Virus record (IMG/VR): IMGVR_UViG_3300029122_000022
Strand: one strand, 5' to 3'
From: a virus
Length of the DNA: 36,827 bases
Shown: one piece after another, positions 1 to 36,827 of the stretch
How positions within the stretch are numbered: the first letter of the stretch is position 1
How the letters are laid out: the number at the start of each line of letters is the position of its first letter
Translations under genes and position numbers: made by a program
Notes under the pieces: model-generated
What the model saw: only the letters and a program-made list of their open reading frames with translations
Database searches by the model: none
What the model was told of the DNA's origin: nothing

Positions 1-96
1 AACGGTTAGCTCCGGAAAATAGAAACGTGCGGATCGTGCCCGCGCCGGAGCGCGAAACGTTCGAATAGTTCGAACGTACTTAAAAACTTAAACAAA
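1..96 (+). promoter_or_regulatory. Early leader cassette A (structured ~90-bp repeat abutting a start codon)
   Basis: Core TTAGCTCCGGAAAATAGAAACGTGCGGATCGTGCCCGCGCCGGAGCGCGAAACGTTCGAATAGTTCGAACGTACTTAAAAACTTAAAC. Contains a GCTCCGG/CCGGAGC stem enclosing a TGCGG-N7-CCGCG hairpin, then the 9-bp dyad ACGTTCGAA-TAG-TTCGAACGT, then an A-rich tract running into the ATG at 97. Confidence 0.85.
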
Positions 97-99
97 ATG
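1..99. repeat. Terminal overlap, copy 1: identical to 36729-36827 (circular closure or short direct terminal repeat)
   Basis: The first 99 nt and the last 99 nt of the window are identical base for base. Unique length is 36,728 bp. Confidence 0.95.
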
Positions 100-450
100 A
101 AAACGCAAAAATTTGTCTTCGACCTTAACTGCAAGTTTGCTATTTACGTACCTACCACGGTAGACGTGGATCGTGTAGACATGGAGGTTGCCGAACGTGT
201 TAAGAGGTACGTAATGGAACGCATGGCAACGTGGTTCGGCGGCTCGACCTCGACCCCGGCCGTCGGCGCGTGGGTGTCGGAGAGCGGCAAGACCGTTTAC
301 GAAAATGTAAATATTGTGTACGCTTATTGCACGAGCGCACAGGCCATCACCGAGTTCGAGAACGTTATCGCGTTGTGCGAGTACGTAAAGAAGGAAATGT
401 CGCAGGAGGCCGTAACGCTGGAGTACAACGGCCAGGTGAAATTCATTTAA
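97..450 (+). CDS. Hypothetical early protein (117 aa)
   Basis: ATG-started ORF directly behind cassette A. No motif I can name. Confidence 0.7.
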   Translation: MKTQKFVFDLNCKFAIYVPTTVDVDRVDMEVAERVKRYVMERMATWFGGSTSTPAVGAWVSESGKTVYENVNIVYAYCTSAQAITEFENVIALCEYVKKEMSQEAVTLEYNGQVKFI

Positions 451-501
451 CGTAATAGGGTATTTGGACCGGTGCGGATGAGAGACTACAGCATTCGCAA
501 T

Positions 502-597
502 AACGGTTAGCTCCGGAAAATAGAAACGTGCGGATCGTGCCCGCGCCGGAGCGCGAAACGTTCGAATAGTTCGAACGTAATTAAAAACTTAAACACT
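502..597 (+). promoter_or_regulatory. Early leader cassette B
   Basis: Same sequence as cassette A, including the AACGG 5' extension. Differs by 1 substitution before the last few nt. Ends at the ATG at 598. Confidence 0.85.
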
Positions 598-993
598 ATG
601 AAAATGATTGAACGTATTATGGTCAGCGCGATAATTGCCGATCAGCTCATCGAGTACGGGAATATAAAGGTATGGCCCGTGTATAGACTTCCGTCGTCCT
701 CGTGGACGGAGGATTTACGCGAGGACGACGGAAGTCTCCCGGAGTGCGTAAAAGAGCGAGCGAAAGACGCTATACTCGGGGTAACGGTTAGGCTACACGA
801 CAATACGATTGCACGTATTAACAAGAGCGAAAAGGAGATCCGGTTGGACTGCTGCCACTGGTACACTAACACAACGCGTTCACGCCTCAACGCTATCCTC
901 CTGTCGCTAACCGGCGGAGCGTTTACGGTCGATCGATACTTCGACCTCGTACAGAGCAAAGAGTCGGATTGGAAGGTAACACTCAGAAAATAA
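598..993 (+). CDS. Hypothetical early protein (131 aa)
   Basis: ATG-started ORF directly behind cassette B. Confidence 0.7.
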   Translation: MKMIERIMVSAIIADQLIEYGNIKVWPVYRLPSSSWTEDLREDDGSLPECVKERAKDAILGVTVRLHDNTIARINKSEKEIRLDCCHWYTNTTRSRLNAILLSLTGGAFTVDRYFDLVQSKESDWKVTLRK

Positions 994-1141
994 CGCGCGG
1001 GTATGGGACGTAAAAATTTAGAGATCGAAGCGATGCTTCATGCGTTGAAAAACTTCTCGTTTTACGCGACGCAAGGTGATACCGAGGTTATATCGTACGA
1101 AGATACGCATCTTCAACGTGGACAATAAAACTTTTATCATA

Positions 1142-1384
1142 ATGGAGAAGGAACGAAGATACGAAGTGCTTACGCTGTCACGTTTGGGGAGAACTCTTTC
1201 GTGCGTGCGGAACACGAAGGAAGGAGCGTTGGATCATTACAAAGGTCTGGTTGACATGTTACGTGGATTCGACGAGCACATAAAAGGTACGTCCGAAACC
1301 GCTTACGTTATTTATAGGGAGGTACGCGTGCTTGATAGCGGAAACGAGCTTGTAGTCGAGGAACGTAGTAGTTACGTTTTATAG
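1142..1384 (+). CDS. Hypothetical small protein (80 aa from ATG 1142; the ORF track starts it at GTG 1076)
   Basis: Fills the gap between the gene at 598-993 and cassette C. ATG 1142 has an A/T-rich leader like other starts here. The start is uncertain. Confidence 0.5.
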   Translation: MEKERRYEVLTLSRLGRTLSCVRNTKEGALDHYKGLVDMLRGFDEHIKGTSETAYVIYREVRVLDSGNELVVEERSSYVL

Positions 1385-1388
1385 CATT

Positions 1389-1478
1389 TTAGCTCCGGAA
1401 AATAGAAACGTGCGGATCGTGCCCGCGCCGGAGCGCGAAACGTTCGGATAGTCTGAACGTACTTAAAACCTTAAAGTT
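1389..1478 (+). promoter_or_regulatory. Early leader cassette C
   Basis: Same core. The dyad variant ACGTTCGGA-TAG-TCTGAACGT keeps pairing through an A-T to G-C change plus one G-T wobble. Ends at the ATG at 1479. Confidence 0.85.
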
Positions 1479-2144
1479 ATGAACAAAGAAAGATTTATTA
1501 CGATTTCGCGTGCGCAGATTGACGAGTACGTCGCATTTTGCAACCACTTCAACACGTTATTGGAAGTGGCAGAACGTTTCGACGGTAAGGTGCTCAGCGT
1601 CAGATTCTCAAAAGCCGTCAACGAGGCGTGCGAGAAGGTTGTGCGGAGTAACGGCACGTCCGTGCCAAGATTCATGTTATCTACAAGCACAACAGATACG
1701 TACGAGTACGTAAACGGCAAACGTGTTGGCTGCTGTCAGCTCTCGCTAATTTTCAGTATGGAGAACCGTTGGGTTAATGTAGGTAAAGACAGAAACGGAC
1801 TCCCCATCGGGACGTACATAGACGACAATATGTACTTGAACGTGTATGTTAGGGGCGGCGTCACGTCCGAATATCGTATCTGCGCTCAAGCGATACGTGA
1901 CGCCGTAGTGAAGAAAATCGTAGCTATACGCGAGGAGGTGGCCGTACTTATCGACGCAGTAGAGAAGTACGACTATTACGAGAAGGTCGTCAGGGATTTA
2001 CGTGCGGCTATCGGCGAAAGTGTCGTCGAGATCAACCCGCTGCTCCGACCGAAGGAGCTGACCGCCTTTGCCACCCTCGAACAGCTCAAAGAAGGACGTA
2101 AAGCAATCGTGGACAAGGTATGCGGCACTACAAAAGAAAGGTAG
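1479..2144 (+). CDS. Hypothetical early protein (221 aa)
   Basis: ATG-started ORF directly behind cassette C. Confidence 0.75.
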   Translation: MNKERFITISRAQIDEYVAFCNHFNTLLEVAERFDGKVLSVRFSKAVNEACEKVVRSNGTSVPRFMLSTSTTDTYEYVNGKRVGCCQLSLIFSMENRWVNVGKDRNGLPIGTYIDDNMYLNVYVRGGVTSEYRICAQAIRDAVVKKIVAIREEVAVLIDAVEKYDYYEKVVRDLRAAIGESVVEINPLLRPKELTAFATLEQLKEGRKAIVDKVCGTTKER

Positions 2145-2182
2145 TACCATACGCGTATCAGAGGGATAGGTTCAGTATCCTT

Positions 2183-2272
2183 TTAGCTCCGGAAAATAGA
2201 AACGTGCGGATCGTGCCCGCGCCGGAGCGCGAAACGTTCGGATAGTCTGAACGTACTTAAAAACTTAAAGTT
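2183..2272 (+). promoter_or_regulatory. Early leader cassette D
   Basis: Same core and same dyad variant as cassette C. Preceded by a small GGATA/TATCC hairpin plus TTTT. Ends at the ATG at 2273. Confidence 0.85.
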
Positions 2273-2650
2273 ATGATTAAGAGAACGTATGTGGACACGT
2301 GGGAGGAGCCTACGTCTTTTGAAGAGTTCATCGAAGAGATTGAATACAGCGAAGTTGCGCAGCGTCCTTGCGTCGTATGTGGCACCGTAGGTACGTGGCA
2401 AGGAGATCGTGCTATCTGTGCTAAACGTTTCGACAATCTGAAGGACGCTATCTACGCGTGTGTAAAACCCTGCGGCGAGGTTGTAATTTCACAACGTGCG
2501 TCCAACATCATCGTCGACGGGTACCGCCACGATGGAACGAACCATTTCGAGATTCACGTATTGAACGACAAAGGCGTACGTGCGGACGAAAATCGTTGCA
2601 ACCTGTCGCGTCGAGAGTATCAACTGGCCCTCAAAGATTACGTAATATGA
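2273..2650 (+). CDS. Hypothetical early protein (125 aa)
   Basis: ATG-started ORF directly behind cassette D. Confidence 0.7.
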   Translation: MIKRTYVDTWEEPTSFEEFIEEIEYSEVAQRPCVVCGTVGTWQGDRAICAKRFDNLKDAIYACVKPCGEVVISQRASNIIVDGYRHDGTNHFEIHVLNDKGVRADENRCNLSRREYQLALKDYVI

Positions 2651-2910
2651 AACGTGCGGGAGAACCGAACCTCGTACCTGTTGGGTACGGCGAGTTCATT
2701 ATAACGAACACAGGCGTTACCGTGCGGGTAACGCGAGCTAACCACGAAAAGAAGGAGCACAAATTCGGAACGTTGAGCGCTGCTCTACGTTTCTGCGACG
2801 AGAATGTTATTGAGACGTGTAGGGTGGACGAAGTTGTGGTAGAAGCCACGCTCGTTGTGAAGCCCGACATCAAATACGTAGAGACGGGTGTCGGAGTTGT
2901 TGCAGAATAG
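2647..2910 (+). CDS. Hypothetical protein (87 aa, MKRAGEPN...)
   Basis: ATGA start/stop overlap with the preceding gene (ATG 2647-2649, TGA 2648-2650). This is the internal Met of the 2458..2910 ORF. Confidence 0.6.
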   Translation: MKRAGEPNLVPVGYGEFIITNTGVTVRVTRANHEKKEHKFGTLSAALRFCDENVIETCRVDEVVVEATLVVKPDIKYVETGVGVVAE

Positions 2911-2920
2911 CAACGTATTA

Positions 2921-2948
2921 TCCGGATAGCTTTGATCGGCTATCCGGG
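2921..2948 (+). terminator. Intergenic stem-loop (CCGGATAGC / GCTATCCGG)
   Basis: 9-bp perfect stem just after the stop at 2910. No clear T-run follows. Confidence 0.35.
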
Positions 2949-2969
2949 TGCAAATGTAAATAACAAGGT

Positions 2970-3464
2970 ATGCGAACGAGAGTAAAAGTGCACGTGCACA
3001 GAAACTACGTGCAGACGTTAGTGAGATTTATAGAGCGACCATGCTCGTATGTAGAATTTGGGGTGGGATCACTACGTGGTCCGATAAACGTATTGAACTC
3101 TACAAATCTACGTGCGGACCTCGAAACGTCTGTAAGTTATGGTGTCGATGAAAGATTTTCCGAGTTTCCGGAAAACGCGTACTTCGAAATGGTGTACGAA
3201 TACGAAGTGTCTGCAAGCGTACAGGGCGCGGCGTCGAGCAAAGATGTGCTTTTTAAGTACGTTCGCTTTGCGAATCAGAAGCACGGCATACAGGACCTTA
3301 CCGACGCTTTTAAAGATAGCGTCCCGACGCCGATACGCCTTAAAGTAGTAAGCAACGTATTTACAGCCATCGCAAACCGAGACGCTGAAACGTTTATGAA
3401 GTTGATAAAAGCAATCTCCGCAGCGAGCGGAAACAAAACAATACGCGAATGGACGTTAGAATAA
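2970..3464 (+). CDS. Hypothetical protein (164 aa)
   Basis: ATG ORF packed tightly against its neighbours. Confidence 0.65.
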   Translation: MRTRVKVHVHRNYVQTLVRFIERPCSYVEFGVGSLRGPINVLNSTNLRADLETSVSYGVDERFSEFPENAYFEMVYEYEVSASVQGAASSKDVLFKYVRFANQKHGIQDLTDAFKDSVPTPIRLKVVSNVFTAIANRDAETFMKLIKAISAASGNKTIREWTLE

Positions 3465-4195: not shown

Positions 4196-4636
4196 ATGAA
4201 AACACGTTATGAAATGGCGAAACTTTTCTCGATAGAGAGGGATTTCGACGGCAACATTAAAGTGATTGCCGGAAACATGACCAAAACGTACAACAACCTC
4301 CCGATTTCAACCGTATCGTTCCTTTTCGAGCTGTCCGAGTACGTAGCACGGTCCGCCGAGCTGTTCGAGAAGTACGTTAAGCCGGAGCGGGAATCCGAGT
4401 TCTCAGGCTGTATGCTGACGACGGCCAACTGCGTAGAGAAAGAACCGGATAGCTTCGGCCCCGTTATACACAAGATGCAAGTCGGGGGAGCGGGAGGAGT
4501 TATGCGTACGTCGGTTGAGGTGACTATTAGTCGAATCGAGTTCGCGTTCGCGCTTGCGATGAAGGACTCGGACAAAACGTTCGACGCTATCATCCACGAC
4601 ATCGCCGTAAAGAAGTTAATCAGCGTAATCAAATAA
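4196..4636 (+). CDS. Hypothetical protein (146 aa)
   Basis: ATG ORF between the MBL and SSB genes. Confidence 0.65.
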   Translation: MKTRYEMAKLFSIERDFDGNIKVIAGNMTKTYNNLPISTVSFLFELSEYVARSAELFEKYVKPERESEFSGCMLTTANCVEKEPDSFGPVIHKMQVGGAGGVMRTSVEVTISRIEFAFALAMKDSDKTFDAIIHDIAVKKLISVIK

Positions 4637-7236: not shown

Positions 7237-9624
7237 ATGAGTGTTTACGACATAGCGTTTGGGGTCAAACGATCACAGACAACAACAAAACAATATCGGC
7301 TCGAATGGGAGGAGATCGTTCAACGCCTAAAGAACGTAACTCGTACCGACGAGACGATGGCACAATACGCCCAAATGAGCAAATCACAGAAGGTCGACGT
7401 TAAAGACGTTGGCTTTTTCATCGGCGGTTTGTGCGTAAAGAGGAAAGTTACCTACCGTCAGTTGCTCGTCATCGACATCGACGAGGCAGCAGAGGACACA
7501 CTAAAAGCGTTACGAGACTGGCTCGCTGGGCATGCGTACGTCATACACAGCACGCACAGCTCCACGCCGGATGACCCGAGATACCGGGTCGTCGTTCCGT
7601 TGAATCGTATTGTACTTGCTGACGAGTACGGAGCGATTATGCGCGTATTGCACGACAAGTTCAAACTTCCTCTCGACGTCTCGACGTTTGACTTCAACCG
7701 TATCATGTTCCTCCCGTCTATCCCGAAGGACGCGGAGTATTTTTTCGAATACGAGAACGGGGAGGAACTCGACGTAACCCCGTTGCTGGAGCAGCTCGAC
7801 AACTGGCAGGACCTGTCCGACGTGCCTGTACCGGAGAAGGTACGGGTGCAGGACCCGAAGTACAAAGGAGGTTTGGTCGGTGCGTTCTGCGCGAAGGTCT
7901 CGGTCCGCGAAGCAATCGAAACGTACTTACAGGACGTATGGAGAAAAGAACGAAGCGGCCGCTACACGCTCATAGGCGCTACGACTGTCGGTGGTGGGGT
8001 TATCTACGAGGACAAGTATCTGTACTCGAATCACTCCTCCGACCCGTACCTCGGTCGGTGTCATAACGCGTACGACGCCGTACGTCTGTATAAATTCGGC
8101 GAAGGCAAGCAGGGAGAGGCGGCTATGGCGTCGTTGTGTGAAAGCCTCGGCATACGTGCGGATAGCGGGAAGGCTCACCGCCTTACCGTCGACGGGATGG
8201 ACGACGAGGAGGCTAAAGCCATACTCAACGAACGTTTGGAGGTGGACAGCAAAGGAAACCTCGAAAAGACTCTCAAAAACGCACAGTTGATCTTGAAGTA
8301 TGACCCGGAGCTGCGGGACATCTTTGCATACGATCTGTTCAGCGAAATGCCCGTATTGAAGCGTACGCCGTCGTGGCGCACTTTTGATATTCGGACGGAG
8401 AACGAGGACTGCCGAAATATCCAAACGTACGACGAAATGACAGACACGGACGAAAGCTACCTACGGCTCTATTTCGAGGATAAGTACGGATTCGACGCAC
8501 GTGCGGTCCTTACGGATGCGCTCAACATCGTAGAGCACGAGAACGCGTTCCATCCGGTACGCGATTATCTCAACTCTCTCAAGTGGGACGGGGTGAAACG
8601 TCTCGAAACGATCTTCATAGACTGTTTCGGGGTACCCAATACGCTATACGCGCGCGAGGTGGGAAAGAAGTTTTTCACAGGTGCGGTTCGACGCGTGTTC
8701 ATACCTGCCTCGAAAATGGACTACATACCTGTTCTTGTTTCGGAGGAGGGCTTCGGTAAATCGAAGTTTGTCCGACGTATGGCCAAACTTTGGGGCTCCG
8801 ATACGTTCTACACGTTTAACGGCAGCAAGGAGGCTTACGAGCAGCTGCGGGGTGTGTGGATCATGGAGATACCCGAGTTGAACGGAGTGCAGAGCAAAAG
8901 TACGAACAGTCGAAAAGCGTTCGTCACCAAAGGGGAAGACCGCTATCGTGCGGCTTACCTTAAATACACAAAGACGTACAAACGTCAGTGCGTATTTATC
9001 GCCTCGTCGAACGACGTGGTGTTTCTCGACGATCCGTCGGAGGATGGCCGACGTTGGTGGGGTATGATCTGCAACAAGGAGCGCGTAAAGATAGACGTCC
9101 ATTCGGAAGCGTTTCTCGGTCTTGTAGACCAGTACTGGGCCGAAGCGGTTCATTACTATTTGCAAGGTGTGCTACCCGTATTGTCGGATGCCGCCGAGGC
9201 GGAGGCCCGTCAGTTTAGAACGGTCCACAAAGCGGAGGATTCCGAGCTCGGAGCGTTGATCGACTATCTTAATATGCCTGTTCCTGTTGATTGGTATAAG
9301 ATGAGTACGTTCGAGCACAAGCAATACTGGTTGAACTCACGAGACGTGTGGTCAGGAACTCCTCGTCAATACGTATGTACTACTGAAGTGGCGCGGGAGT
9401 TCTATGAATACGAACGTAAAGATATGACCCCGACGATAGGCCGAAAGGTGGCTGACGCGATACGTAGGACGCAGCTTTTTGACCAAACCGCAGCTAACCG
9501 ACGATTCGGTGAGTACGGATCGTGTGTAGCTTGGATACGTAGAAGGATACCAAAGGAATTAAAAAATACTATTGATGACTACGACGGATTTGATACTAAA
9601 GGAGAGCCGGAAATTTGGACTTGA
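7237..9624 (+). CDS. Primase-polymerase / VirE-type (SF3, D5-like) helicase
   Basis: N-terminal prim-pol motifs (LLVIDIDE; HSTHSS..RYRVVVPL). C-terminal P-loop (SEEGFGKSK) and Walker B-like (VWIMEIPEL). Confidence 0.85.
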   Translation: MSVYDIAFGVKRSQTTTKQYRLEWEEIVQRLKNVTRTDETMAQYAQMSKSQKVDVKDVGFFIGGLCVKRKVTYRQLLVIDIDEAAEDTLKALRDWLAGHAYVIHSTHSSTPDDPRYRVVVPLNRIVLADEYGAIMRVLHDKFKLPLDVSTFDFNRIMFLPSIPKDAEYFFEYENGEELDVTPLLEQLDNWQDLSDVPVPEKVRVQDPKYKGGLVGAFCAKVSVREAIETYLQDVWRKERSGRYTLIGATTVGGGVIYEDKYLYSNHSSDPYLGRCHNAYDAVRLYKFGEGKQGEAAMASLCESLGIRADSGKAHRLTVDGMDDEEAKAILNERLEVDSKGNLEKTLKNAQLILKYDPELRDIFAYDLFSEMPVLKRTPSWRTFDIRTENEDCRNIQTYDEMTDTDESYLRLYFEDKYGFDARAVLTDALNIVEHENAFHPVRDYLNSLKWDGVKRLETIFIDCFGVPNTLYAREVGKKFFTGAVRRVFIPASKMDYIPVLVSEEGFGKSKFVRRMAKLWGSDTFYTFNGSKEAYEQLRGVWIMEIPELNGVQSKSTNSRKAFVTKGEDRYRAAYLKYTKTYKRQCVFIASSNDVVFLDDPSEDGRRWWGMICNKERVKIDVHSEAFLGLVDQYWAEAVHYYLQGVLPVLSDAAEAEARQFRTVHKAEDSELGALIDYLNMPVPVDWYKMSTFEHKQYWLNSRDVWSGTPRQYVCTTEVAREFYEYERKDMTPTIGRKVADAIRRTQLFDQTAANRRFGEYGSCVAWIRRRIPKELKNTIDDYDGFDTKGEPEIWT

Positions 9625-10090
9625 TGACAAGGCCATAACGCGTTTAGCGCCCTACTCCGGCTTGAGGTTATTCTCTTGGGCGCTTAAACGCATAGTGAGA
9701 ACCAACGACAAGGACGAGACTATTACAAGTCAGCTCGAAACAGTAAGACTTTTACTAACGGAGAAGGTACCATCGCACGTAATAAAATACGCCTATTATA
9801 GGCTGCCGGAAGCAAAGATACTCAAATCATCCGAGGAGGCTATACACGTTTTGTCGGAGAACTTCGGGTCCCGGGATTTTTGGGTCTCGGTATACCCGTG
9901 TACGGAGAGGGGGTGCATACGTCTCGCCGTAGAGTGCCTGTTGCTGCAAGGTGGGTCCCCGTCTTGCATATCCGAAAAACTCAAAGTTACGGAGAGGACG
10001 GTGTATAATTTACGTACGAAAGTTGTTCGTAGGGAGCTGGATTTAAAATCGAAACCTAATGATACTCAACATATCCAGGAAAGCGTATGA
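9575..10090 (+). CDS. Putative transcription regulator with a C-terminal HTH (sigma-70 region 4 / LuxR-like)
   Basis: The C-terminal segment SCISEKLKVTERTVYNLRTKV looks like a helix-turn-helix. The ORF track starts it at TTG 9572; the first ATG is at 9575. Overlaps the primase 3' end by about 50 nt. Confidence 0.4.
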   Translation: MTTTDLILKESRKFGLDDKAITRLAPYSGLRLFSWALKRIVRTNDKDETITSQLETVRLLLTEKVPSHVIKYAYYRLPEAKILKSSEEAIHVLSENFGSRDFWVSVYPCTERGCIRLAVECLLLQGGSPSCISEKLKVTERTVYNLRTKVVRRELDLKSKPNDTQHIQESV

Positions 10091-13357: not shown

Positions 13358-14353
13358 TTAATCGAGAACCGGGAACGTTTGGAAGAAGTCAAGTTTTTTC
13401 ACCTCTATCACCGTATTGGGCATCTCGGTGGTAAACCTCGTAGTTATGGCGTACTGGGTGCCCGCAGGAACAGAGAACGATCCGAAGTTAGCTACGGCAG
13501 TAGGGCCGTAAAGGTGTACTGTTATAGCTTGGCTCGTTGTATTCCTTGCGATGACGTGTACCACCCCCGGTATTGCCGGCCCGAACGTTATATTCGTCCG
13601 CCCGGCCGTCAACGTCACGATGAACAGACCCGTAACGCCGATGTTACAACTACCGGTGAATAGGGTAACTCCCGAACGTACAAACGGAGCGGCATCGCAC
13701 TTAACAGGTGTAACGCTACCATCTGCTATTTGCGCATTACCTACCGCACCATTTGCAATCTTACCCGTAGTAACGGCGGCATCGGCAATCTTATCCGTGG
13801 TTACGGCTGCACTTTCAATCTTATCCGTAGTAACGGCTTCACCGGCAATCTTACCCGTAGTAACGGACCCATTTACGAGTTTTTCCCTGGTAATGGTGTT
13901 GTTCACAATAGCGCCACCGTTCACGTAAGGGATGTACCGGAATAGAGAGAGTACGGTCTCCGTTACGTTCGTAATGATGCGTATAGCTCCGCTATTAACT
14001 CTGCTGTTTCGGATAACGTTGTTGATGTAAAACGGCTGAACGAGCCCCGTGCTCAAAGTTCTGTCATCGTCGTCAATTGGCGCAACGTACATATCGTCAC
14101 CCTCGGAGAACCCGCCATTATCGCTGGTCGCCCCCTCGTAGTAGTACAGTTTACCCTTGTAAGCAATCACCCCGGGGGTAAGTATACCCCCGACTATGTG
14201 CAGACCGCTTACGATCTTGATAGTCGTGGCGCTATTAAGCGTCTCCGATGCGAGAGCCTCGGTGAGGCCATCCCATACGTTTTGCAAATCCGAAAGTCTG
14301 AACGGCCTTTTGAGGCCCGGATTTGCTGGATTGATTGTCTTAATTCCGGACAT
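13358..14353 (-). CDS. Tail fibre / receptor-binding protein
   Basis: Last gene of the tail module. Carries about six tandem 10-aa repeats (xxxVTTxKIA) in the middle and a divergent C-terminal domain. Confidence 0.6.
   Translation of the reverse strand: MSGIKTINPANPGLKRPFRLSDLQNVWDGLTEALASETLNSATTIKIVSGLHIVGGILTPGVIAYKGKLYYYEGATSDNGGFSEGDDMYVAPIDDDDRTLSTGLVQPFYINNVIRNSRVNSGAIRIITNVTETVLSLFRYIPYVNGGAIVNNTITREKLVNGSVTTGKIAGEAVTTDKIESAAVTTDKIADAAVTTGKIANGAVGNAQIADGSVTPVKCDAAPFVRSGVTLFTGSCNIGVTGLFIVTLTAGRTNITFGPAIPGVVHVIARNTTSQAITVHLYGPTAVANFGSFSVPAGTQYAITTRFTTEMPNTVIEVKKLDFFQTFPVLD
13703..13903 (-). repeat. In-frame 30-bp (10-aa) tandem repeats within the tail fibre gene
   Basis: Peptide NNTITREKLV NGSVTTGKIA GEAVTTDKIE SAAVTTDKIA DAAVTTGKIA NGAVGNAQIA DGSVTPV. 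Confidence 0.8.
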
Positions 14354-24368: not shown

Positions 24369-26558
24369 TTACTCGGCGAGAGCGGGAACAACGAGTGCGA
24401 CACCCTTTCCGCCTTCACGGGCAACGGTTGCGCCTGCTGACATCCAACCCGAGTACGTGTAGCCGTAGTTGGTCGGGTCCGGCATGACGATCACGTCGAT
24501 CGTTCCGATACCTGCGATGATCTCGTTCTCGACGAACGCAACACCTGCGCCAACCGTGTTCGCGACGGTAACAGCCGGGCTGATAGCCTCGGCGGTGCCG
24601 TCGGCGTCTACGGAGTAGTCGGCGTACATAGCCGGGTCGAGCTCGGGTTTGCCGCTCGTGGTGTTGTAGCGTGCAACGGGGTTACGCGGTCCGATCTTCA
24701 TACCGTTCCACTCGAAGCCCGAGCCAGTTGCACCGGACAGGTTACGCGTGAGGATCGACTGGAAGATTTGGTTAGCCGCCGCCATCGTGTATATCTGCGA
24801 CGGGAGCACAACCTCCACACGACGGTTATTCATGTCGAAGTTCTGCGTGAGGAACGCACCCATGAGGTTGATAAGGTCCGTCGGAACGAGTTTCTTGATG
24901 TTCACTTTCGAGTTCGGGGCCTCGATCGGGAACAGCCCCTGCGACGGTACGCTGTCACCGGACGTGAAAATCTTCGACACACCTGTGGTGTTCGCAGCCA
25001 CCTGGAGGATGAACGTAGCCACCTTCGCCATGAGCGAATCCATAGCGATCGTCCAACCCCACGACTGCTTGTCGTACGCGAGGATGGCAAGCTCCGCGTT
25101 CTGGAACGTCATCGGCTGGATGGAGAACACCTGCCGGGCGATCGTCCGCTTAATGTCCTCGTAGAAGTAGCGAGGAGCGTTGACCGGAGTGACCGAACCA
25201 ACGTACGTTGCGGGATTTACGCCCGACTCAACGTAGATGGCACCCTCGCGGTCCGACATCGGAACGAAACGTACGGAGCGCATGAACGTGTTGTCCGGGA
25301 GCAGCTTCTCGTAGAAGAGCGACAGCCACTTGATGACACCGAGGTCAGCAGCAGCCAGCGTGTTGGCGGCTGCACCGCCAGCGGCGCACTCGACGAGAAC
25401 GCGAAGTCCGTTTTTACGTTCGTGGGTCACCCCGTCGGTGAAGTTCGTCGCCGAAGCGAGCGTTACCATACGCTCGTCGTTCAGCATCGAGCAGGTGAGC
25501 ATACGCACCGTTTCGGTGTTCTCTGTGGTTTTGTCTGCGGCCGTAGCGCCAGTACGGAACGCCGCGCCGAGCTGGTGCAAACGCTTCTGAAAATCAGCGT
25601 CGCAATTCAACTCTCTGAAAGTCTTTTCCATGTTGATGGGTTTTGTTTGGTTAAGAATCTGTTGTTCGTGCCACGTCATACCGTTAGGCAGTCGGCGTCC
25701 GTGTTTTTGTGCGTCGTCATCGTCGTCTCCGTCCTCGACACCCGCGTTAACAGGTCTCGGTTCCGGATCGCTGTTCGGTTCCGGGTCGCTGTTCGGTTCC
25801 GGGTCGCTGTTCGGTTCCGGATCGTTGTTCGGTTCCGGATCGTTGTTCGGTTCCGGATCGCTGTTCGGTTCCGGATCGCTGTTCGGTTCCGGATCGCTGT
25901 TCGGTTCCGGGTCGCTGTTCGGTTCCGGGTCGCTGTTCGGTTCCGGGTCGCTGTTCGGTTCCGGATCGTTGTTCGGTTCCGGATCGCTGTTCGGTTCCGG
26001 ATCGCTGTTCGGTTCCGGATCGGACTCTTCGAGACTGGCTTCGATACGTTTGTATTCTGTCTCGGAGAATCCCATCGTAAGGTAACGTACCTCGCAACCG
26101 TCTTTGCGCATACCTTCTACGATCTCACGATCAGCTTCCGACTCTACGTCACGATCCTCGATCGGTCGACATTCGATGTTGGCAGGCTGTGCCACGAGCG
26201 AAACCTCCATTGCGAGGTACGTGTCCGCGACGAAAACTCCATCTTCGTTCTCGTTACCGAGCGCGAATCCGCCGATTGATACGTAACGGAGGATCCCCTG
26301 TTCGTACTTCTCGAACGCGATGTCAGCGTCTTCGAATCGCTCCATAAAAGCGAGACGGCCAACGAACGCGTCTCCGATACGTTCTCGTTCGATAACTTTG
26401 CCGACGGCCACACCTCTGTGCCCCTCGTGCTCTCGGTCGTAGCGCAGCAACGGGTTAGCGTCGAAACGCGACCAGTCGATAGCGTCCGGCGGTATAACGT
26501 TGCGGTTCATGTCGACAGCGCCCGTGGTGAGGACCTGTCTTTTCTTTGATACCCTCAT
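24369..26558 (-). CDS. Prohead protease (S78/HK97-type) - acidic repeat linker - HK97-fold major capsid protein fusion (729 aa)
   Basis: N-terminal protease motifs: LRYDREHEGH, YVSIGGF, MEVSLVAQPANIE. The middle holds 15 xDPEPN hexapeptides. The C-terminal ~420 aa has the size and character of an HK97-type capsid protein and lies at the capsid position. Confidence 0.75.
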   Translation of the reverse strand: MRVSKKRQVLTTGAVDMNRNVIPPDAIDWSRFDANPLLRYDREHEGHRGVAVGKVIERERIGDAFVGRLAFMERFEDADIAFEKYEQGILRYVSIGGFALGNENEDGVFVADTYLAMEVSLVAQPANIECRPIEDRDVESEADREIVEGMRKDGCEVRYLTMGFSETEYKRIEASLEESDPEPNSDPEPNSDPEPNNDPEPNSDPEPNSDPEPNSDPEPNSDPEPNSDPEPNSDPEPNNDPEPNNDPEPNSDPEPNSDPEPNSDPEPRPVNAGVEDGDDDDDAQKHGRRLPNGMTWHEQQILNQTKPINMEKTFRELNCDADFQKRLHQLGAAFRTGATAADKTTENTETVRMLTCSMLNDERMVTLASATNFTDGVTHERKNGLRVLVECAAGGAAANTLAAADLGVIKWLSLFYEKLLPDNTFMRSVRFVPMSDREGAIYVESGVNPATYVGSVTPVNAPRYFYEDIKRTIARQVFSIQPMTFQNAELAILAYDKQSWGWTIAMDSLMAKVATFILQVAANTTGVSKIFTSGDSVPSQGLFPIEAPNSKVNIKKLVPTDLINLMGAFLTQNFDMNNRRVEVVLPSQIYTMAAANQIFQSILTRNLSGATGSGFEWNGMKIGPRNPVARYNTTSGKPELDPAMYADYSVDADGTAEAISPAVTVANTVGAGVAFVENEIIAGIGTIDVIVMPDPTNYGYTYSGWMSAGATVAREGGKGVALVVPALAE
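25759..26022 (-). repeat. 18-bp tandem repeat, 14 full units plus partial ends (GGTTCCGGRTCGYTGTTC), in-frame (S/N)DPEPN
   Basis: Counted unit by unit. There are three sequence variants (A..CT, G..CT, A..TT) arranged in blocks. Confidence 0.95.
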
Positions 26559-32780: not shown

Positions 32781-33080
32781 AACCTGTGAACAAAGCATAC
32801 CTATATTTATATAGGCGGGACGCCGGTTCGTCGATCCGCAGCAGGCCCCAGCCGAACGGGCAGGCGGGTCGGTGTAGAGGCGAGCCGCCCAAACGTTTAT
32901 TAAAAAATTTTATAAACGTAATTTTCCCATTTTAATTTTTTTTCTGCGGCTCGGATGTCGGTATGCGCCGCCGCCCCGTCGCCCTGTTTACCCTCGAAAC
33001 GTCGAATCGACGAAACGTTTTTGCCCGTTTTCGTTACGTTTCGGCGATTCGACTTTTCGACTATACGTCGAATCGGCGGC

Positions 33081-33220
33081 AAAGCGTTTCGGCGGCAACG
33101 TTTTTCAGCGGCAACGTTTTTCGGCGTTTCGTCTGCACGTTGTGATCGGATCGAAACGACGGTAAAGCGTTTCGGCGGCAACGTTTTTCGCCGTTTCGTC
33201 TGCACGTTGTGATCGGATCG
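33081..33220. repeat. Two ~57-bp direct repeats (AAAGCGTTTCGGCGGCAACGTTTTTCG[G/C]CGTTTCGTCTGCACGTTGTGATCGGATCG)
   Basis: Copy 1 is 33081-33153 and carries an internal 16-bp duplication of GCGGCAACGTTTTTC-type sequence. Copy 2 is 33164-33220. They differ by 1 substitution otherwise. Confidence 0.9.
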
Positions 33221-33246
33221 GGCCGATTATGCGGTGCGACGCGCGA

Positions 33247-33288
33247 TTCGGCGGATCGGCGGCCTACCCGCGACGCCGATCCGCCGAA
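33247..33288. repeat. Perfect 15-bp inverted repeat (TTCGGCGGATCGGCG-N12-CGCCGATCCGCCGAA)
   Basis: Arms at 33247-33261 and 33274-33288, checked base by base. Confidence 0.9.
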
Positions 33289-33370
33289 AAGCGAGAAAAC
33301 AGGCGAAAATCGCCGAAACGGCGAAAAGATCGGGACGCCTGGAAAATATTCTAAATGTCCGGTATTGTGG

Positions 33371-33441
33371 TGTTCCACGTGGAACGTCTATAAGTTGTTC
33401 CACGTGGAACGCCGATAAGTTGTTGAGTTTCAACAACTTAT
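33371..33441. promoter_or_regulatory. Operator-like array: 25-bp tandem x2, each containing the 14-bp palindrome GTTCCACGTGGAAC, followed by a 12-bp-stem hairpin
   Basis: Palindromes at 33372-33385 and 33397-33410. Hairpin is ATAAGTTGTTGA-GTT-TCAACAACTTAT at 33415-33441. Confidence 0.8.
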
Positions 33442-33490
33442 GTAAAAATGTTCAAAATGTCCGCATGATCCGGTCAACCTATTCCGATTA

Positions 33491-33515
33491 TAAGTTGCTG
33501 ATAACCAGCAACTTA
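33491..33515. repeat. 10-bp-stem hairpin (TAAGTTGCTG-ATAAC-CAGCAACTTA) sharing the ATAAGTTG motif
   Basis: Perfect inverted repeat. ATAAGTTG also occurs at about 33390, 33415 and 34032. Confidence 0.8.
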
Positions 33516-33550
33516 ACTTTTTAGGTACAGTCGAATTCCAAAATAGGGCC

Positions 33551-33605
33551 TTTTGACTAACTGCGCAACACACTAATTTACAGACATTTGCGCGGTTAGT
33601 CAAAA
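33551..33605 (+). ncRNA. Long hairpin (18-bp stem, 19-nt loop) of unknown function
   Basis: TTTTGACTAACTGCGCAA ... TTGCGCGGTTAGTCAAAA. The single non-Watson-Crick position is a G-U wobble only if transcribed from the plus strand. Confidence 0.35.
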
Positions 33606-33760
33606 ATAAGTGTGGGGATAAAAAAGGGGCTAAACTATTGATACTAAACAGATTGCAAAATGAAAAGTGAAAAAAGGACATTTAGAACAAAAAAAAGGGC
33701 ATTTAGTTGAATTTTTTTCTTCTTGGTTTTCAGACCTTTACACGATTTTCCCCCAGCGGT

Positions 33761-34218
33761 GTGGATATGAAACGGGCCTATTTCGGTTCGTTTTCAGCAC
33801 GTTACGCGCCTTTTGTTGGTGGTGGGATATGAAAATCGAAACTTTTTTAAGAAAATGACCGTTTTCGAAAAGTGCCGATTTTCCAGAAAAGTTTCGAAAA
33901 CTCGTTTTCATATCCCACTTTTTGGCACCGTATTGATTTTCAGTGATATACGTGTGTATATAAAAAAATTTAAAAACTATTCGACTGGTTTTCAAGCAGT
34001 TACATATCCCACCTTAATAGTCTGTAAATCAATAAGTTGTGAAAATTTTGTGGGTATGAAGATTTTTTATACCAAGCGGCCCGACGATAAGATTTTGTTA
34101 TACTTCCTGTGTATCAATACGTTACAAGAAAATCCGACTTTTAGAACAATCCGCAGCGGCCCGCCCGATCGATTGAAGCAACGGCCGGGGGGGTCTATAT
34201 ATATAATAGGTATGAAAA
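33761..34218. repeat. Dispersed iteron-like motif GTGGGATATGAAA (six copies, both orientations) in an AT-rich ORF-poor stretch
   Basis: Forward copies at 33761 (GTGGATATGAAA), 33822 (GTGGGATATGAAA), 34050 (GTGGGTATGAAG) and 34208 (AGGTATGAAAA). Inverted copies at 33906 (TTTCATATCCCAC) and 34001 (TACATATCCCACC). Confidence 0.7.
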
Positions 34219-34245
34219 TTTTTTTGCAAAAAAGTGGTCAAAAAA

Positions 34246-34277
34246 TTTGCATATCGTGAAAACGTTTAGTATATTTG
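34246..34277 (+). promoter_or_regulatory. Bacteroidota-type sigma-A promoter (-33 TTTG, 20-nt spacer, -7 TATATTTG)
   Basis: TTTG at 34246-34249 and TATATTTG at 34270-34277 match the TTTG-N19-21-TAnnTTTG consensus, 53 nt upstream of the ATG at 34330. Confidence 0.6.
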
Positions 34278-34329
34278 TGATGTCGGAAAGGAACAGGATC
34301 AGCCCCGACAAACTAAAAATTTTTAAGAT

Positions 34330-34572
34330 ATGAAAAAATACGAATCATTTGCTTATGCGCACGATGTTGCCGACGCATTCTATCCGGGACGGCTTTTCTA
34401 TTTCTGCAAAGGCCGAAAAACTTGCTACACGTTTATAGATGTAGTTGTAGAACATGCGGCTAACGGCTCGCAGCGCCTTATCGTCGTTTCGACGATAAAC
34501 GAAAAGACAGGGGTAACGTATAAGGTTATTCGGGAAAGCGACTACCGCAAAATCCCTGTCGTAGTTTACTAA
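34330..34572 (+). CDS. Hypothetical protein (80 aa), first gene of the early arm
   Basis: ATG ORF downstream of the consensus promoter. A GC-rich dyad follows it (34576-34628). Confidence 0.6.
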   Translation: MKKYESFAYAHDVADAFYPGRLFYFCKGRKTCYTFIDVVVEHAANGSQRLIVVSTINEKTGVTYKVIRESDYRKIPVVVY

Positions 34573-34681
34573 ATAGGTTTGCCGCCGAAACGTAAAGCGT
34601 TCGCCCGGGTCACGCCCGGCGGCGGCACAAACGCAAAAAGCGTCTAATTTACTTATTAACTAACTTAACACATTACGCATT

Positions 34682-35299
34682 ATGAAAAACGTAAAAAACA
34701 ACTCAGAACTCGCAGCCGTTGAGGCTGCAAACGTTGAGGCCGTCGCACCCGAAGAGGTTGCGCGTGAACTGTCCCCGATCGAAAAGAAGGCTGCCGCCGT
34801 GCTTCGCGCAAAGTTGCCGCACCTGTCTGAAAACGGCCTTAATTTTGAAAAGCGTACGGGAAACTTTTTCCGTGCGACGATTCAGACACAGGACGACGGG
34901 ACGGAAAAAGTGTCGCGTCTCGTCGTGGCTGATGCTGACATCAAAGGCATGACCGACGCGCTGGCCGCCGAAATGTCGATAAAGCGCGCCGCCGCCCGTA
35001 TCATGTCCGCCGAGTCGAACGCCGCGAAACTCGAAAAGAAGATCGAAGAGGCTCGCGCAGAGTTGGCCGCGCTCGAAGCCGAGAAGGCCGCCGCTGTTGC
35101 TGAACACGACAAGGCCGCCGCCGCCGTCGGAGCGTACGAGTTGCCCGAAAAGGCCGCCCGGGAAACGTTGTCGGCCAAGGCCGCCGCCGCCGAATCGAAG
35201 GCCGCCGCCGCCGAATCGAAGGCCGCCGCCGTGATGTCCGAGAACGAGCGTCTGCGCGCAATGCTGATTGCCGCCGGGCTTGACCCGGACAAGATGTAA
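34682..35299 (+). CDS. Ala-rich coiled-coil protein (205 aa), function unknown
   Basis: Long Ala/Glu/Lys helical region with a tandem AAAAESK x2. The antisense ORFs here are shadows of its GC-rich codons. Confidence 0.6.
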   Translation: MKNVKNNSELAAVEAANVEAVAPEEVARELSPIEKKAAAVLRAKLPHLSENGLNFEKRTGNFFRATIQTQDDGTEKVSRLVVADADIKGMTDALAAEMSIKRAAARIMSAESNAAKLEKKIEEARAELAALEAEKAAAVAEHDKAAAAVGAYELPEKAARETLSAKAAAAESKAAAAESKAAAVMSENERLRAMLIAAGLDPDKM

Positions 35300-36662: not shown

Positions 36663-36728
36663 AACGTCCGGCGAACGAACGAGGCCCGCCCGATGCGGGT
36701 GATATGTTCTTTATCTTTCCTATAATAT

Positions 36729-36827
36729 AACGGTTAGCTCCGGAAAATAGAAACGTGCGGATCGTGCCCGCGCCGGAGCGCGAAACGTTCGAATAGTTCG
36801 AACGTACTTAAAAACTTAAACAAAATG
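36729..36827. repeat. Terminal overlap, copy 2 (re-reads early cassette A and the ATG of the first gene)
   Basis: Identical to 1-99. Ends in ATG, matching the start codon at 97-99. Confidence 0.95.

Follow-up and report, generated by a model that had tools for sequence, protein, structure and literature searches.

Why do four unrelated small genes in the early region of a human-gut phage start directly behind almost the same non-coding sequence? The window, that is, the whole stretch of 36,827 nucleotides analysed here, contains four near-identical cassettes of about 95 bases, as found by direct reading, repeat finding and alignment, and each of them runs to an ATG that opens an ORF. Both the four cassettes and their fusion to start codons had been described in the original prediction and are borne out here. 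Its positions hold for cassettes A and B, whereas its starts for C (1389) and D (2183) lie a few bases late: the likeness to A and B begins at TTAGC (1387 and 2181), and C and D have an extra TT in common that extends this to TTTTAGC from 1385 and 2179. Bases 1–99 recur at 36729–36827; thus, the window represents a genome of about 36.73 kb in circularly permuted form, and the copy at its 3' end is cassette A read twice through the assembly overlap. The cassettes and the genes behind them are as follows, where hairpin 2 is the dyad:

1..96, + strand, and again at 36729–36824: cassette A, with hairpin 1 at 9–51 (inner stem 28–32/40–44), linker 52–56, hairpin 2 at 57–77 and A-rich leader 78–96; covariance model score 105–115 bits
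97..450, + strand: gene behind cassette A (ATG 97), 117 aa, family F17, which some relatives have and others lack
502..597, + strand: cassette B, with hairpin 1 at 510–552, hairpin 2 at 558–578 and leader 579–597; 114.7 bits
598..993, + strand: gene behind cassette B (ATG 598), 131 aa, with a Kyano_Gp96-like segment; L006 has a different allele
1385..1478, + strand: cassette C, with hairpin 1 at 1392–1434, hairpin 2 at 1440–1460 and leader 1461–1478; 122.8 bits
1479..2144, + strand: gene behind cassette C (ATG 1479), 221 aa, family F02, in all cassette-bearing relatives
2179..2272, + strand: cassette D, with hairpin 1 at 2186–2228, hairpin 2 at 2234–2254 and leader 2255–2272; 121.5 bits
2273..2650, + strand: gene behind cassette D (ATG 2273), 125 aa, family F00

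RNA folding recovered the anatomy that had been proposed, a nested hairpin followed by a hairpin of 9 bp with a 3-nt loop, as both the minimum free energy and the centroid structure in all four cassettes. The fold energies are −29.1 to −29.3 kcal/mol with z-scores of about −2.1 to −2.3, and the + strand folds better than the − strand. Hairpin 1 has a 7-bp outer stem, a conserved A-rich one-sided internal loop of 12 nt and a 5-bp inner stem, and hairpin 2 has a 9-bp stem closed by a UAG triloop. The 43-nt core GCTCCGGAAAATAGAAACGTGCGGATCGTGCCCGCGCCGGAGC, which has the same letters in all four cassettes, spans hairpin 1 (9–51, 510–552, 1392–1434 and 2186–2228), and none of 100 shuffles gave a match. 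The dyad had been described as perfect. This is true of A and B, whereas C and D are imperfect as DNA, each with one G-U wobble in hairpin 2 that corresponds to a G-T pair valid on the + strand only. The paired changes between the two subtypes are as they had been reported, with A-T becoming G-C at one pair and G-C becoming G-T at the neighbouring pair.

Homologous phages keep the cassette, a conservation on which the original prediction had staked its claim. We found it in about 12 related human-gut phage contigs, with two to four copies in each relative of at least 69% PolA identity, always oriented with the gene and always joined to a start codon; L010, at 55% PolA identity, has neither cassettes nor modules. 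Between clades, the identity of the cassette core is 89–92% compared to 64–73% for the flanking genes. Searches of GenBank phages and of 185,579 representative cellular genomes did not find the cassette, and Rfam gave no match at gathering scores over the whole window and no cassette match at E<=10. Within the cassette, conservation peaks in hairpin 1 rather than in the dyad. The outer half-site of the dyad, ACGTTC/GAACGT, is invariant across clades; its commonest form is asymmetric as DNA (G-T), and several variants have added G-T pairs that are valid on the + strand only. Other variants retain hairpin 1 and have lost the dyad, and these still adjoin genes. There are also three-way-junction variants of hairpin 1, in which a stem with differing loops (GGAC, AUAA or UUAU) is inserted and the outer stem is shortened by one pair on both sides.

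The variation among copies is compatible with the fold. Standard pairs fill 99.2% of 651 pair cells, compared to 29–44% when partners are slid by 1–3 columns, a control that is not to be read as a probability, the structure having been derived from these same sequences. Pair 16–54 switches between UA and CG passing through UG, pair 71–77 switches between GC and AU, pair 70–78 occurs as GU, GC and AU, and two wobble pairs are near-fixed. Among the polymorphic changes, G-U changes valid on the + strand outnumber A-C mismatches on the + strand by about 9 to 3, a wobble-strand bias that is only suggestive (one-sided p about 0.07). Covariation seems to lend thin support, with two to three covarying pairs, few independent events and paralogues that evolve in concert. 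The paired changes that had been called a signature of selection on structure are present, but very few independent substitutions stand behind them. Near-invariant sequence in both stems would not be needed for a purely structural role and would fit recognition at the DNA level equally well.

When comparing the relatives by a presence/absence map and an identity profile, we find that a given cassette-headed module may be retained, missing or exchanged for another, and that the breakpoints fall at the cassettes. This gain, loss and replacement of modules bounded by cassettes is a comparative result that was not part of the original prediction. For instance, F02 alleles differ strongly (68% vs 95% nucleotide identity) between relatives whose flanking cassettes are 98–99% identical, and an F18 gene has been replaced while its flanks are 99–100% identical. 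The F00 gene is the first of a conserved block that continues into the replication genes. The four genes behind the cassettes are ORFans with no informative matches, and their proposed candidacy for host takeover or anti-defence is unsupported.

The genome is that of a small myovirus of a Bacteroidota host, with PolA, VapE and SNF2 replication genes, a sheath and a baseplate hub, and no gene set of T4 size. A CRISPR spacer on an Alistipes-like contig targets the cassette, which points to Alistipes as probably the host. The largest ORFs encode VapE (795 aa), a head-like protein (729 aa), a structural-region product (669 aa, no PHROG match at E<=1e-5) and PolA (619 aa). An RNA polymerase had been predicted to be missing, and no such domain occurs among the scanned proteins, a subset of the ORFs. 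Three further features upstream of cassette A bear on how the cassettes might be transcribed:

34246..34277, + strand: canonical Bacteroidota primary-sigma promoter, TTTG-N20-TATATTTG, conserved in L041 and L007
34580..34681, + strand: cassette E, a strongly diverged fifth copy upstream of the ORF at 34682
36684..36720, + strand: terminator-like short GC hairpin and T-rich tract just upstream of cassette A

In agreement with the earlier reading that the cassettes lack a host promoter consensus, we found no TAnnTTTG, TTTG-N-TAnnTTTG or sigma-70-like pair inside any of them. The full consensus (as cited in PMC7366714) occurs on the + strand of the early region only at 34246, about 2.5 kb upstream of the cassettes, and this promoter had not been noted before. 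A long early RNA of the + strand with all cassettes on it likely starts there, which would mean that the cassettes do not come first in early transcription. Just 5' of cassette A, at 36712–36719, there is a near-consensus −7 box, TATCTTTC, which is conserved in all clade-1 relatives and may act as an additional promoter of lower strength. For most internal cassettes, the 70 nt upstream contain no −7 box, and some cassettes begin 10 nt past the stop codon of the preceding gene. The terminator-like hairpin before cassette A is weak and not kept in clade 2, and weak hairpin-plus-T-run motifs lie upstream of C and D; these features would fit new transcription units that begin at cassettes.

Cassette E, also absent from the original prediction, is a weak match to the covariance model (19.1 bits, E 6e-4). 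Its 8-bp outer stem (UGCCGCCG/CGGCGGCA) surrounds two small hairpins and is followed by a 4-bp hairpin, ACGC-AAAAA-GCGU, and by an A/U-rich leader of about 38 nt that reaches ATG 34682; the folding z-score is −2.7. It is kept in six relatives with G-U-only changes, and in L011 the equivalent position is occupied by a standard hairpin 1. The architecture is retained and the sequence is different. In L041, cassette E lies within the 5' UTR, about 45 nt 3' of the canonical promoter, and in L007, gene F04 follows directly after the promoter with no cassette there.

Judged by its base composition, the leader reads as a textbook Bacteroidota translation start region of the kind that does without a Shine-Dalgarno sequence. 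Positions −6 and −11 to −15 are A, as is −3 in cassettes A and B, and a Shine-Dalgarno core precedes only 3 of 42 genes; both the A positions and the rarity of Shine-Dalgarno sequences match the published Bacteroidota pattern (PMC7366714). The A tract at −11 to −15 is found generally in the start regions of this genome.

What, then, is the cassette? We give about even weight to the view that it is a portable module through which accessory early genes are both expressed and recombined. The form of this view that we favour, again with confidence near the halfway mark, is a transcribed 5'-UTR or intercistronic RNA module that would double as homology for recombination. The repeats, their conservation, the fold-compatible variation, the start-region features of the leader, the upstream promoter and the module shuffling are all seen in the data, whereas transcription of the cassettes, their action as RNA and the factor that reads them are inferred. 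Host RNA polymerase would start at the sigma-A-type promoter at 34246 and produce a long + strand transcript, with a second, weak start possible just 5' of cassette A. Each cassette would be transcribed as an intercistronic 5' leader in which hairpins 1 and 2 fold locally, and the conserved unpaired hairpin bases would most likely be read by a trans-acting factor, be it a protein, a nuclease or RNA polymerase; the search for a candidate RNA-binding factor identified none. The folded hairpins may shield the leader of 19–24 nt, an optimal start region of the Shine-Dalgarno-less kind, so that translation of each inserted ORF would be independent of its neighbours, and the mRNA segment behind each cassette would probably be stabilised. 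Finally, about 75 nt of near-identity between copies could serve as homology for recombination that inserts, deletes and swaps cassette-plus-ORF modules.

Such exchange would resemble that of the promoter-early stem-loop (PeSL) cassettes of T4-like phages (Arbiol, Comeau and Krisch 2010, PMC2839356; Comeau et al. 2014, PMC4122927). Both elements have a stable stem-loop with G-T pairs in a hyperplastic ORFan region, in both the indels and replacements between close relatives break at the cassettes, and both carry the translation start signals of the downstream gene. However, a PeSL by definition has a host sigma-70 consensus promoter and a Shine-Dalgarno sequence, whereas the gut-phage cassette has neither a host sigma-A consensus nor a Shine-Dalgarno sequence and instead has two hairpins with highly conserved loops. 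Unlike the PeSL phages, the gut phage is not T4-like but a myovirus with a 36.7-kb genome and a Bacteroidota host. A second comparison is to the start-associated sequences (SAS) of Cluster K mycobacteriophages and their extended inverted repeats (ESAS; Pope et al. 2011, PMC3203893). Like the cassette, SAS is a conserved asymmetric sequence that directly precedes start codons, in a single orientation and before unrelated genes, with an imperfect inverted repeat just upstream at about half of the sites (PMC3203893), and the feature is kept across subclusters as the cassette is across clades. The analogy is in layout only: the SAS consensus, GGGATAGGAGCCC, which includes the ribosome-binding site and lies 3–8 bp before start codons, is unrelated in sequence to the cassette and absent from all cassettes. 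Furthermore, SAS occurs in 10–19 dispersed copies in phages of an actinobacterium that uses Shine-Dalgarno sequences, whereas the cassettes cluster in a hyperplastic region.

There is also a bolder reading, which we hold tentatively and with clearly less confidence than the module itself: the cassette may be an undescribed class of phage cis-regulatory element for Shine-Dalgarno-less hosts, in addition to a recombination handle by which these gut phages would exchange accessory genes. In one form, it would be a structured 5'-UTR RNA with conserved loops that a dedicated factor of the phage or the host recognises, and it would time or boost translation, stability or elongation for each plug-in gene. 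In the other, it would be a promoter with a hairpin in its spacer, to which a phage sigma-like protein would redirect RNA polymerase.

A promoter within the cassette is also the core of the strongest rival explanation, which we consider a little less probable still. Here, the cassette would be a PeSL-like composite of terminator and promoter, in which hairpin 1 attenuates upstream transcription and the 3' half is an ECF-sigma promoter with a −35 GAAAC at 54–58, a 16-nt spacer formed by hairpin 2 and a −10 CGTA at 75–78. Transcription would start near 84–86, and the reader would be a host ECF sigma factor or a phage sigma-like protein such as the helix-turn-helix (HTH) protein at 9575–10090. 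All four cassettes contain GAAAC-N16-CGTA; the window has six matches compared to an expectation of 0.79, and cassette copies account for five of them (A being read twice). Among 31 relatives, GAAAC is invariant, CGTA is nearly so and the spacing is fixed. ECF promoters are marked by a −35 AAC and a −10 CGT at a distance of 16–17 nt, a pattern that the cassettes share. Motifs and spacing match the Bacillus sigma-W-type consensus tGAAAC-N16-CGTA exactly (PMC5758882), Bacteroidota ECF promoters are likewise marked by a CGT −10 box (PMC9723704), and PeSL stem-loops with G-T pairs often lie between −35 and −10 (PMC2839356). The terminator-like features before cassette A and the missing sigma-A consensus agree with this explanation as well. 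However, ACGT, AACG and CGTA are over-represented 2.6–3.4-fold genome-wide, and a stem that begins with AACG must end with CGTT; the match is thus much less surprising than it looks. The spacer differs from that of a known ECF promoter in being a conserved perfect hairpin. A start near 84–86 would cut part of the A tract at −11 to −15, and the stretch between hairpin 1 and GAAAC varies by two-nucleotide indels. Three variants without CGTA or the whole 3' half (L008:3064-3156, L011:1155-1251 and cassette E) still lie directly before genes, an observation about their position and not about their function.

The C-terminus of the 172-aa HTH protein has weak HTH_23 and GerE matches, which belong to the fold class of sigma region 4, but the protein has no Sigma70_r2 or r4 match, no PDB sequence match and only five homologues, and its AlphaFold2 model has a pLDDT of 49. 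Encoded further downstream in the same strand block, the protein would be unable to start the cascade by itself, and no cognate ECF sigma factor was identified among the phage candidates. Of the originally proposed promoter read through a phage specificity factor, the ECF-type motif around the dyad speaks for the idea, whereas the lack of sigma domains in the HTH protein and the motif-less variants speak against it.

The RNA shape itself recalls antitermination elements. HK022 put has two adjacent stem-loops. Like put and lambda nut, which are stem-loop RNAs downstream of early promoters, the cassettes, by themselves or together with a phage protein, could alter RNA polymerase so that it passes terminators and transcribes the + strand operon of about 16 kb to its end. 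The asymmetric internal loop in a two-hairpin RNA, the conserved unpaired bases, which suggest a macromolecule as reader, the position of cassette E shortly 3' of the only canonical early promoter and the terminator-like hairpin between cassettes E and A are all consistent with this. Yet antitermination does not explain why each cassette is fused to a start codon at a fixed 19–24 nt, why four to five copies are needed, or why each is tied to a single ORFan module with which it is gained and lost. L007 has no element between the promoter and F04, the terminator-like hairpin is the one that is weak and lost from clade 2, and the Rfam scans found no sequence relation to any described element. We therefore rate antitermination as improbable.

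An operator at the DNA level is slightly harder still to uphold. The 9-3-9 dyad would be bound by a dimeric HTH regulator (e.g. 9575–10090) that switches the accessory genes jointly, and the perfect palindrome in A and B, the invariant half-site and the presence of the HTH-containing protein in all cassette-bearing relatives would suit it. The asymmetry of the commonest dyad, the + strand-only G-T pairs, the stronger conservation of hairpin 1 and the variants without a dyad would not, and an operator requires a promoter to act on, of which none is recognisable nearby.

Least probable of all are RNase III-type sites, as in the T7 early region, at which the polycistronic early RNA would be cleaved to give stable mRNAs of one cistron each: repeated structured elements between early cistrons of one long transcription unit and an asymmetric internal loop in hairpin 1 are in common, but RNase III substrates have about two helical turns, roughly 20 bp, and the helices here (7+5 bp split by the 12-nt one-sided loop, and 9 bp) are too short compared to the far longer ones of T7. 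Thus, of the option that the cassettes are RNA elements in a long early transcript, the general idea has become the favoured reading and the RNase III analogy fails on helix length; cutting by another nuclease is possible within the portable RNA module. A promoter of the N4 type, a short DNA hairpin with a 3-nt loop that is read by a virion RNA polymerase, was rejected: hairpin 2 has a loop of this size, but no RNA polymerase was found among the scanned ORFs.

Except in crAss-like phages, which have an RNA polymerase of their own, gene expression in Bacteroidota phages has hardly been studied. A non-coding element of 75 nt that is about 90% identical where neighbouring genes are about 65% identical points strongly to some specific regulatory interaction. 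The CRISPR spacer against the cassette shows that a multi-copy regulatory repeat is a liability, one that the phage tolerates, which argues for the functional importance of the repeat. The cassette may also be a ready-made, context-independent expression part for the engineering of Bacteroidota. For the phages themselves, the comparative data point to a PeSL-like route by which accessory early genes are gained, lost and swapped in abundant phages of the human gut.

Bases 1-99 of the window recur at 36729-36827, so that it represents a complete phage genome of about 36.73 kb in circularly permuted form. The terminal cassette is this assembly repeat, and the cassette count is thus four, not five. 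Reading the sequence directly, we found that the anatomy proposed for the cassettes stands, whereas small coordinate shifts were needed: cassettes A to D lie at 1-96, 502-597, 1385-1478 and 2179-2272, and the ATGs into which they run open ORFs of 117, 131, 221 and 125 aa. A 43-nt core shows no differences among its four copies (9-51, 510-552, 1392-1434 and 2186-2228; matched by 0 of 100 shuffles), and a 21-nt dyad starts six bases past it.

RNA folding agrees with the original prediction of a structured element: all four copies adopt one two-domain structure, in the minimum free energy and the centroid fold alike (-29.1 to -29.3 kcal/mol, z-score about -2.2). Hairpin 1 has an outer stem of 7 bp, a one-sided internal loop of 12 nt (AAAAUAGAAACG), an inner stem of 5 bp and a loop of 7 nt. 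Hairpin 2 is a 9-bp stem with a UAG loop, and an A-rich leader of 18-19 nt follows it. The loop sequences of the cassette are UAG, AUCGUGC and AAAAUNGAAAC; an antisense partner for the conserved loops was not found elsewhere in the genome. The minus strand folds more poorly than the plus strand, most of all in copies C and D.

The cassettes belong to a genome with two strand blocks and one host-type early promoter:

34246-34277, plus strand: predicted Bacteroidota primary-sigma promoter, a perfect TTTG-N20-TATATTTG, conserved in relatives.
Early block, plus strand: SbcC-like ATPase, cassette region, metallo-beta-lactamase-fold hydrolase, Enc34-type SSB, PolA, VapE primase-helicase, VRR-NUC, ferritin, MazG, SNF2 helicase.
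Structural block, minus strand: large terminase, head protein, tail sheath, baseplate hub, tail fibre.

Among the proteins scanned there is no RNA polymerase domain, as had been claimed. Two structural genes on the minus strand contain tandem repeats. In a 729-aa ORF with an N-terminus similar to that of a major head protein, about 15-20 units of 18 bp (25703-26080) encode a repetitive six-residue peptide tract, and the tail-fibre-like ORF at 13358-14353 has five 30-bp repeats at 13725-13896. Compared to base composition, the tetranucleotides ACGT (3.4-fold) and AACG/CGTT and TACG/CGTA (about 2.6-fold) are over-represented across the whole window, and CCAG/CTGG, CCTA/TAGG and CTAA/TTAG are under-represented (0.36-0.41). 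Avoidance of restriction sites or a bias linked to methylation could underlie this skew.

Of 42 genes, only 3 have a Shine-Dalgarno core before the start codon, and an A tract at -11 to -15 is a common feature. Scarce Shine-Dalgarno cores and primary-sigma promoters of the TTTG-N20-TATATTTG type are hallmarks of Bacteroidota (PMC7366714). Within this phylum, the host is probably Alistipes, as judged from a CRISPR array with a cassette-matching spacer that adjoins an Alistipes-like Cas1. The array (repeat of 36 nt, GTTGTGGTTTGATGTAGAATTTCAATAAGATACAAC; spacers of 29-30 nt) lies with cas1-cas2 at positions 1-1892 of a bacterial metagenome contig (L073, ERZ838839 NODE_5, 279,921 bp), and this Cas1 has 88-89% identity to the type II Cas1 proteins found in Alistipes species. 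Spacer 8 matches hairpin 1 at 30/30 positions in the related phage contig L004 and at 29/30 in each of the four copies of the window (11-40, 512-541, 1394-1423 and 2188-2217); thus one spacer has four sites per phage genome. The remaining seven spacers have no match to this phage group. We considered an RNA-targeting type VI-B array, which would prove transcription of the cassette, and rejected it because of the adjacent cas1-cas2 and the matches of Cas1 to Alistipes 'type II' Cas1. As the array is indicated to be DNA-targeting type II, it is silent on cassette transcription.

About 12 distinct related contigs, from human-gut metagenomes, were recovered by a search with PolA and by two pattern scans; the metagenome pattern scan gave 119 matches, which were mostly due to chance apart from these. 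Absence of a conserved element from homologous phages would have spoken against the original prediction, yet all relatives at 69% PolA identity or above contain two to four cassettes, gene-oriented and fused to a start codon without exception. The contig L010 (55% PolA identity) has neither cassettes nor analogous repeats and therefore adds no deeper covariation. Between two clades, nucleotide identity is 89-92% in the cassette cores compared to 64-73% in the flanking genes. Thus, the non-coding cassette is more constrained than the genes behind it.

The relatives differ by whole units of cassette plus ORF, in a region flanked by a conserved ATPase gene on one side and by a conserved block starting with the ORF at 2273 on the other. 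The module behind cassette A is present in seven genomes and missing from four, the module behind cassette B occurs in four, and L004 and L008 carry unique modules. In L006, unrelated DNA replaces the cassette B gene between flanks that are 99-100% identical to the window. In L004 and L009, the cassette C gene is 68% identical to that of the window and the cassettes on either side are 98-99% identical. In L012, the inner part of hairpin 1 is tandemly duplicated within a cassette (4238-4375; GAAACGTGCGAGTCATGCCCGCGC(C/T)GGGG twice), which looks like a product of slipped or unequal recombination. In the window, the cassette region ends between two ORFs, one that stops at 2910 and one at 2970. 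The gap holds a strong 13-bp hairpin (2919-2946; stem core CCGGAUAGC, 6-nt loop UUUGAU, GCUAUCCGG; -21.5 kcal/mol, z-score -3.6) that lacks a U tract and may be where the hyperplastic region stops.

When comparing 31 distinct cassettes, we found standard pairs in 99.2% of pair cells, compared to 29-44% when the partners were slid. At pair 16-54, one clade has UA and the other CG, and UG intermediates occur; pair 71-77 varies between GC and AU, and pair 70-78 among GU, GC and AU. This covariation is real but thin, because most stem positions are invariant, the events are few and the paralogues of a genome share clade-specific states. The sharing of such states indicates concerted evolution. Variants that keep the shape and change the sequence support the structure better than the covarying pairs do. 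For instance, three relatives have an extra hairpin in place of the A-rich internal loop, with the stem kept and the loops GGAC, AUAA and UUAU, and their outer stem is shorter by one pair on each side. Furthermore, a diverged fifth cassette (E, 34580-34681) follows the same plan with another sequence: an outer stem around hairpins, a small hairpin and an A/U-rich leader. In L011, a standard hairpin 1 occupies this position. Two wobble pairs are near-fixed, and by our tally transitions that keep a valid G-U pair on the plus strand outnumber those that leave an A-C mismatch there by about 9 to 3, a bias that is only suggestive. Pair compatibility, shape-keeping variants and wobble bias favour a structure that would form in the plus strand, i.e. 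in the transcript.

The surroundings of the cassettes bear on the mechanism. As predicted, none of the cassettes contains the host sigma-A motif, and the promoter at 34246 is the sole full host consensus of the early region. In L041, cassette E falls within the 5' UTR, at a distance of about 45 nt past this promoter. In L007, the early gene that cassette E otherwise heads follows the promoter directly and the cassette is absent there. In the window and L011, a small ORF is inserted after the promoter, and the cassette divides it from this gene. The window ORF (34330-34572, 80 aa) separates the leader of the promoter from cassette E; it is absent from L041, where the ATG of the leader continues directly into the cassette, and is replaced by an unrelated 48-aa ORF in L011. 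The site is a further plug-in position.

For most internal cassettes, the 70 nt upstream lack a -7-like box, and some internal cassettes start 10 nt past the preceding stop codon. Between the ATPase gene and the cassette next to it, a terminator-like hairpin precedes a conserved near-consensus box (TATCTTTC, 36712-36719), so that a second, weaker transcription start just upstream of cassette A is possible. A sigma-70-type match that overlaps this box (36699-36726, GTGATA-16-TATAAT, 10/12) probably plays no role if the host belongs to the Bacteroidota. Upstream of the early block, the 1.4-kb non-coding region that separates it from the structural block (32900-34330) probably serves as the origin of replication, as the main regulatory region or as both. 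It is dense in repeats, both direct (units of the CGGCGGCAACGTTTTTC type; a 64-nt pair at 33090 and 33157) and long inverted ones, and in palindromes (GTTCCACGTGGAAC twice at 33371-33413). Its repeats include CGTTTCGGCGGC, which is reverse-complementary to the 5' arm of cassette E.

Adenines occupy leader positions -6 and -11 to -15, as well as -3 in cassettes A and B. Published work on Bacteroidota (PMC7366714) gives this pattern as optimal for translation starts, and the leader must therefore be within the mRNA. An internal ECF-sigma promoter in the 3' half of the cassette (GAAAC-N16-CGTA) would start transcription so as to trim the A tract of this leader. The motif does have the shape of an ECF-sigma promoter (PMC5758882), a CGT -10 box is known in Bacteroidota as well (PMC9723704), and a spacer occupied by a hairpin, here hairpin 2, is also seen in the promoter-early stem-loop cassettes (PeSLs) of T4-like phages (PMC2839356). 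However, ACGT, AACG and CGTA are over-represented 2.6-3.4-fold genome-wide, a stem starting with AACG necessarily ends with CGTT, cassette variants without the motif also precede genes, and no matching sigma factor was identified. The HTH protein (9575-10090, 172 aa) gave no usable sigma assignment in Pfam, NCBIfam, PDB sequence and profile searches, in a homologue search with five matches or in an AlphaFold2 model (pLDDT 49). We consider an internal promoter the leading alternative, but rather unlikely. MITE-like selfish repeats are rejected by the uniform orientation, the start-codon fusion and the conservation across clades, and known ribozymes by empty Rfam scans. TAG stops in three frames are present in the window cassettes, and a role for them was rejected as the variable base N of AAAATNGAAAC destroys one of them in relatives.

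Rfam gave no cassette match, neither for the whole window at gathering thresholds nor for 1-3000 and 32800-34800 at permissive E-values. Among GenBank phages, 12 kb had no megablast match, and VapE relatives come from many phyla and all have <60% identity; thus, this collection holds no isolated close relative. A pattern scan of 185,579 representative genomes gave four single matches in unrelated taxa, which we attribute to chance (17 bits over the seeded stretch). As an RNA motif, the cassette is undescribed so far.

We conclude that the cassette repeat is real, conserved and clearly functional. It works like the PeSL of T4-like phages, although the host-promoter consensus that defines the PeSL is missing from it. 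We infer, at about even odds, that the cassette functions within the transcript as a structured 5'-UTR element, which would be read by a factor and coupled to a standard start region without a Shine-Dalgarno sequence. The gain, loss and replacement of modules follow the pattern reported for PeSLs (PMC2839356, PMC4122927), for which recombinants between cassettes and mini-circles have also been shown. The cassette is very probably both the portable head of plug-in early gene modules and the boundary at which these modules recombine.
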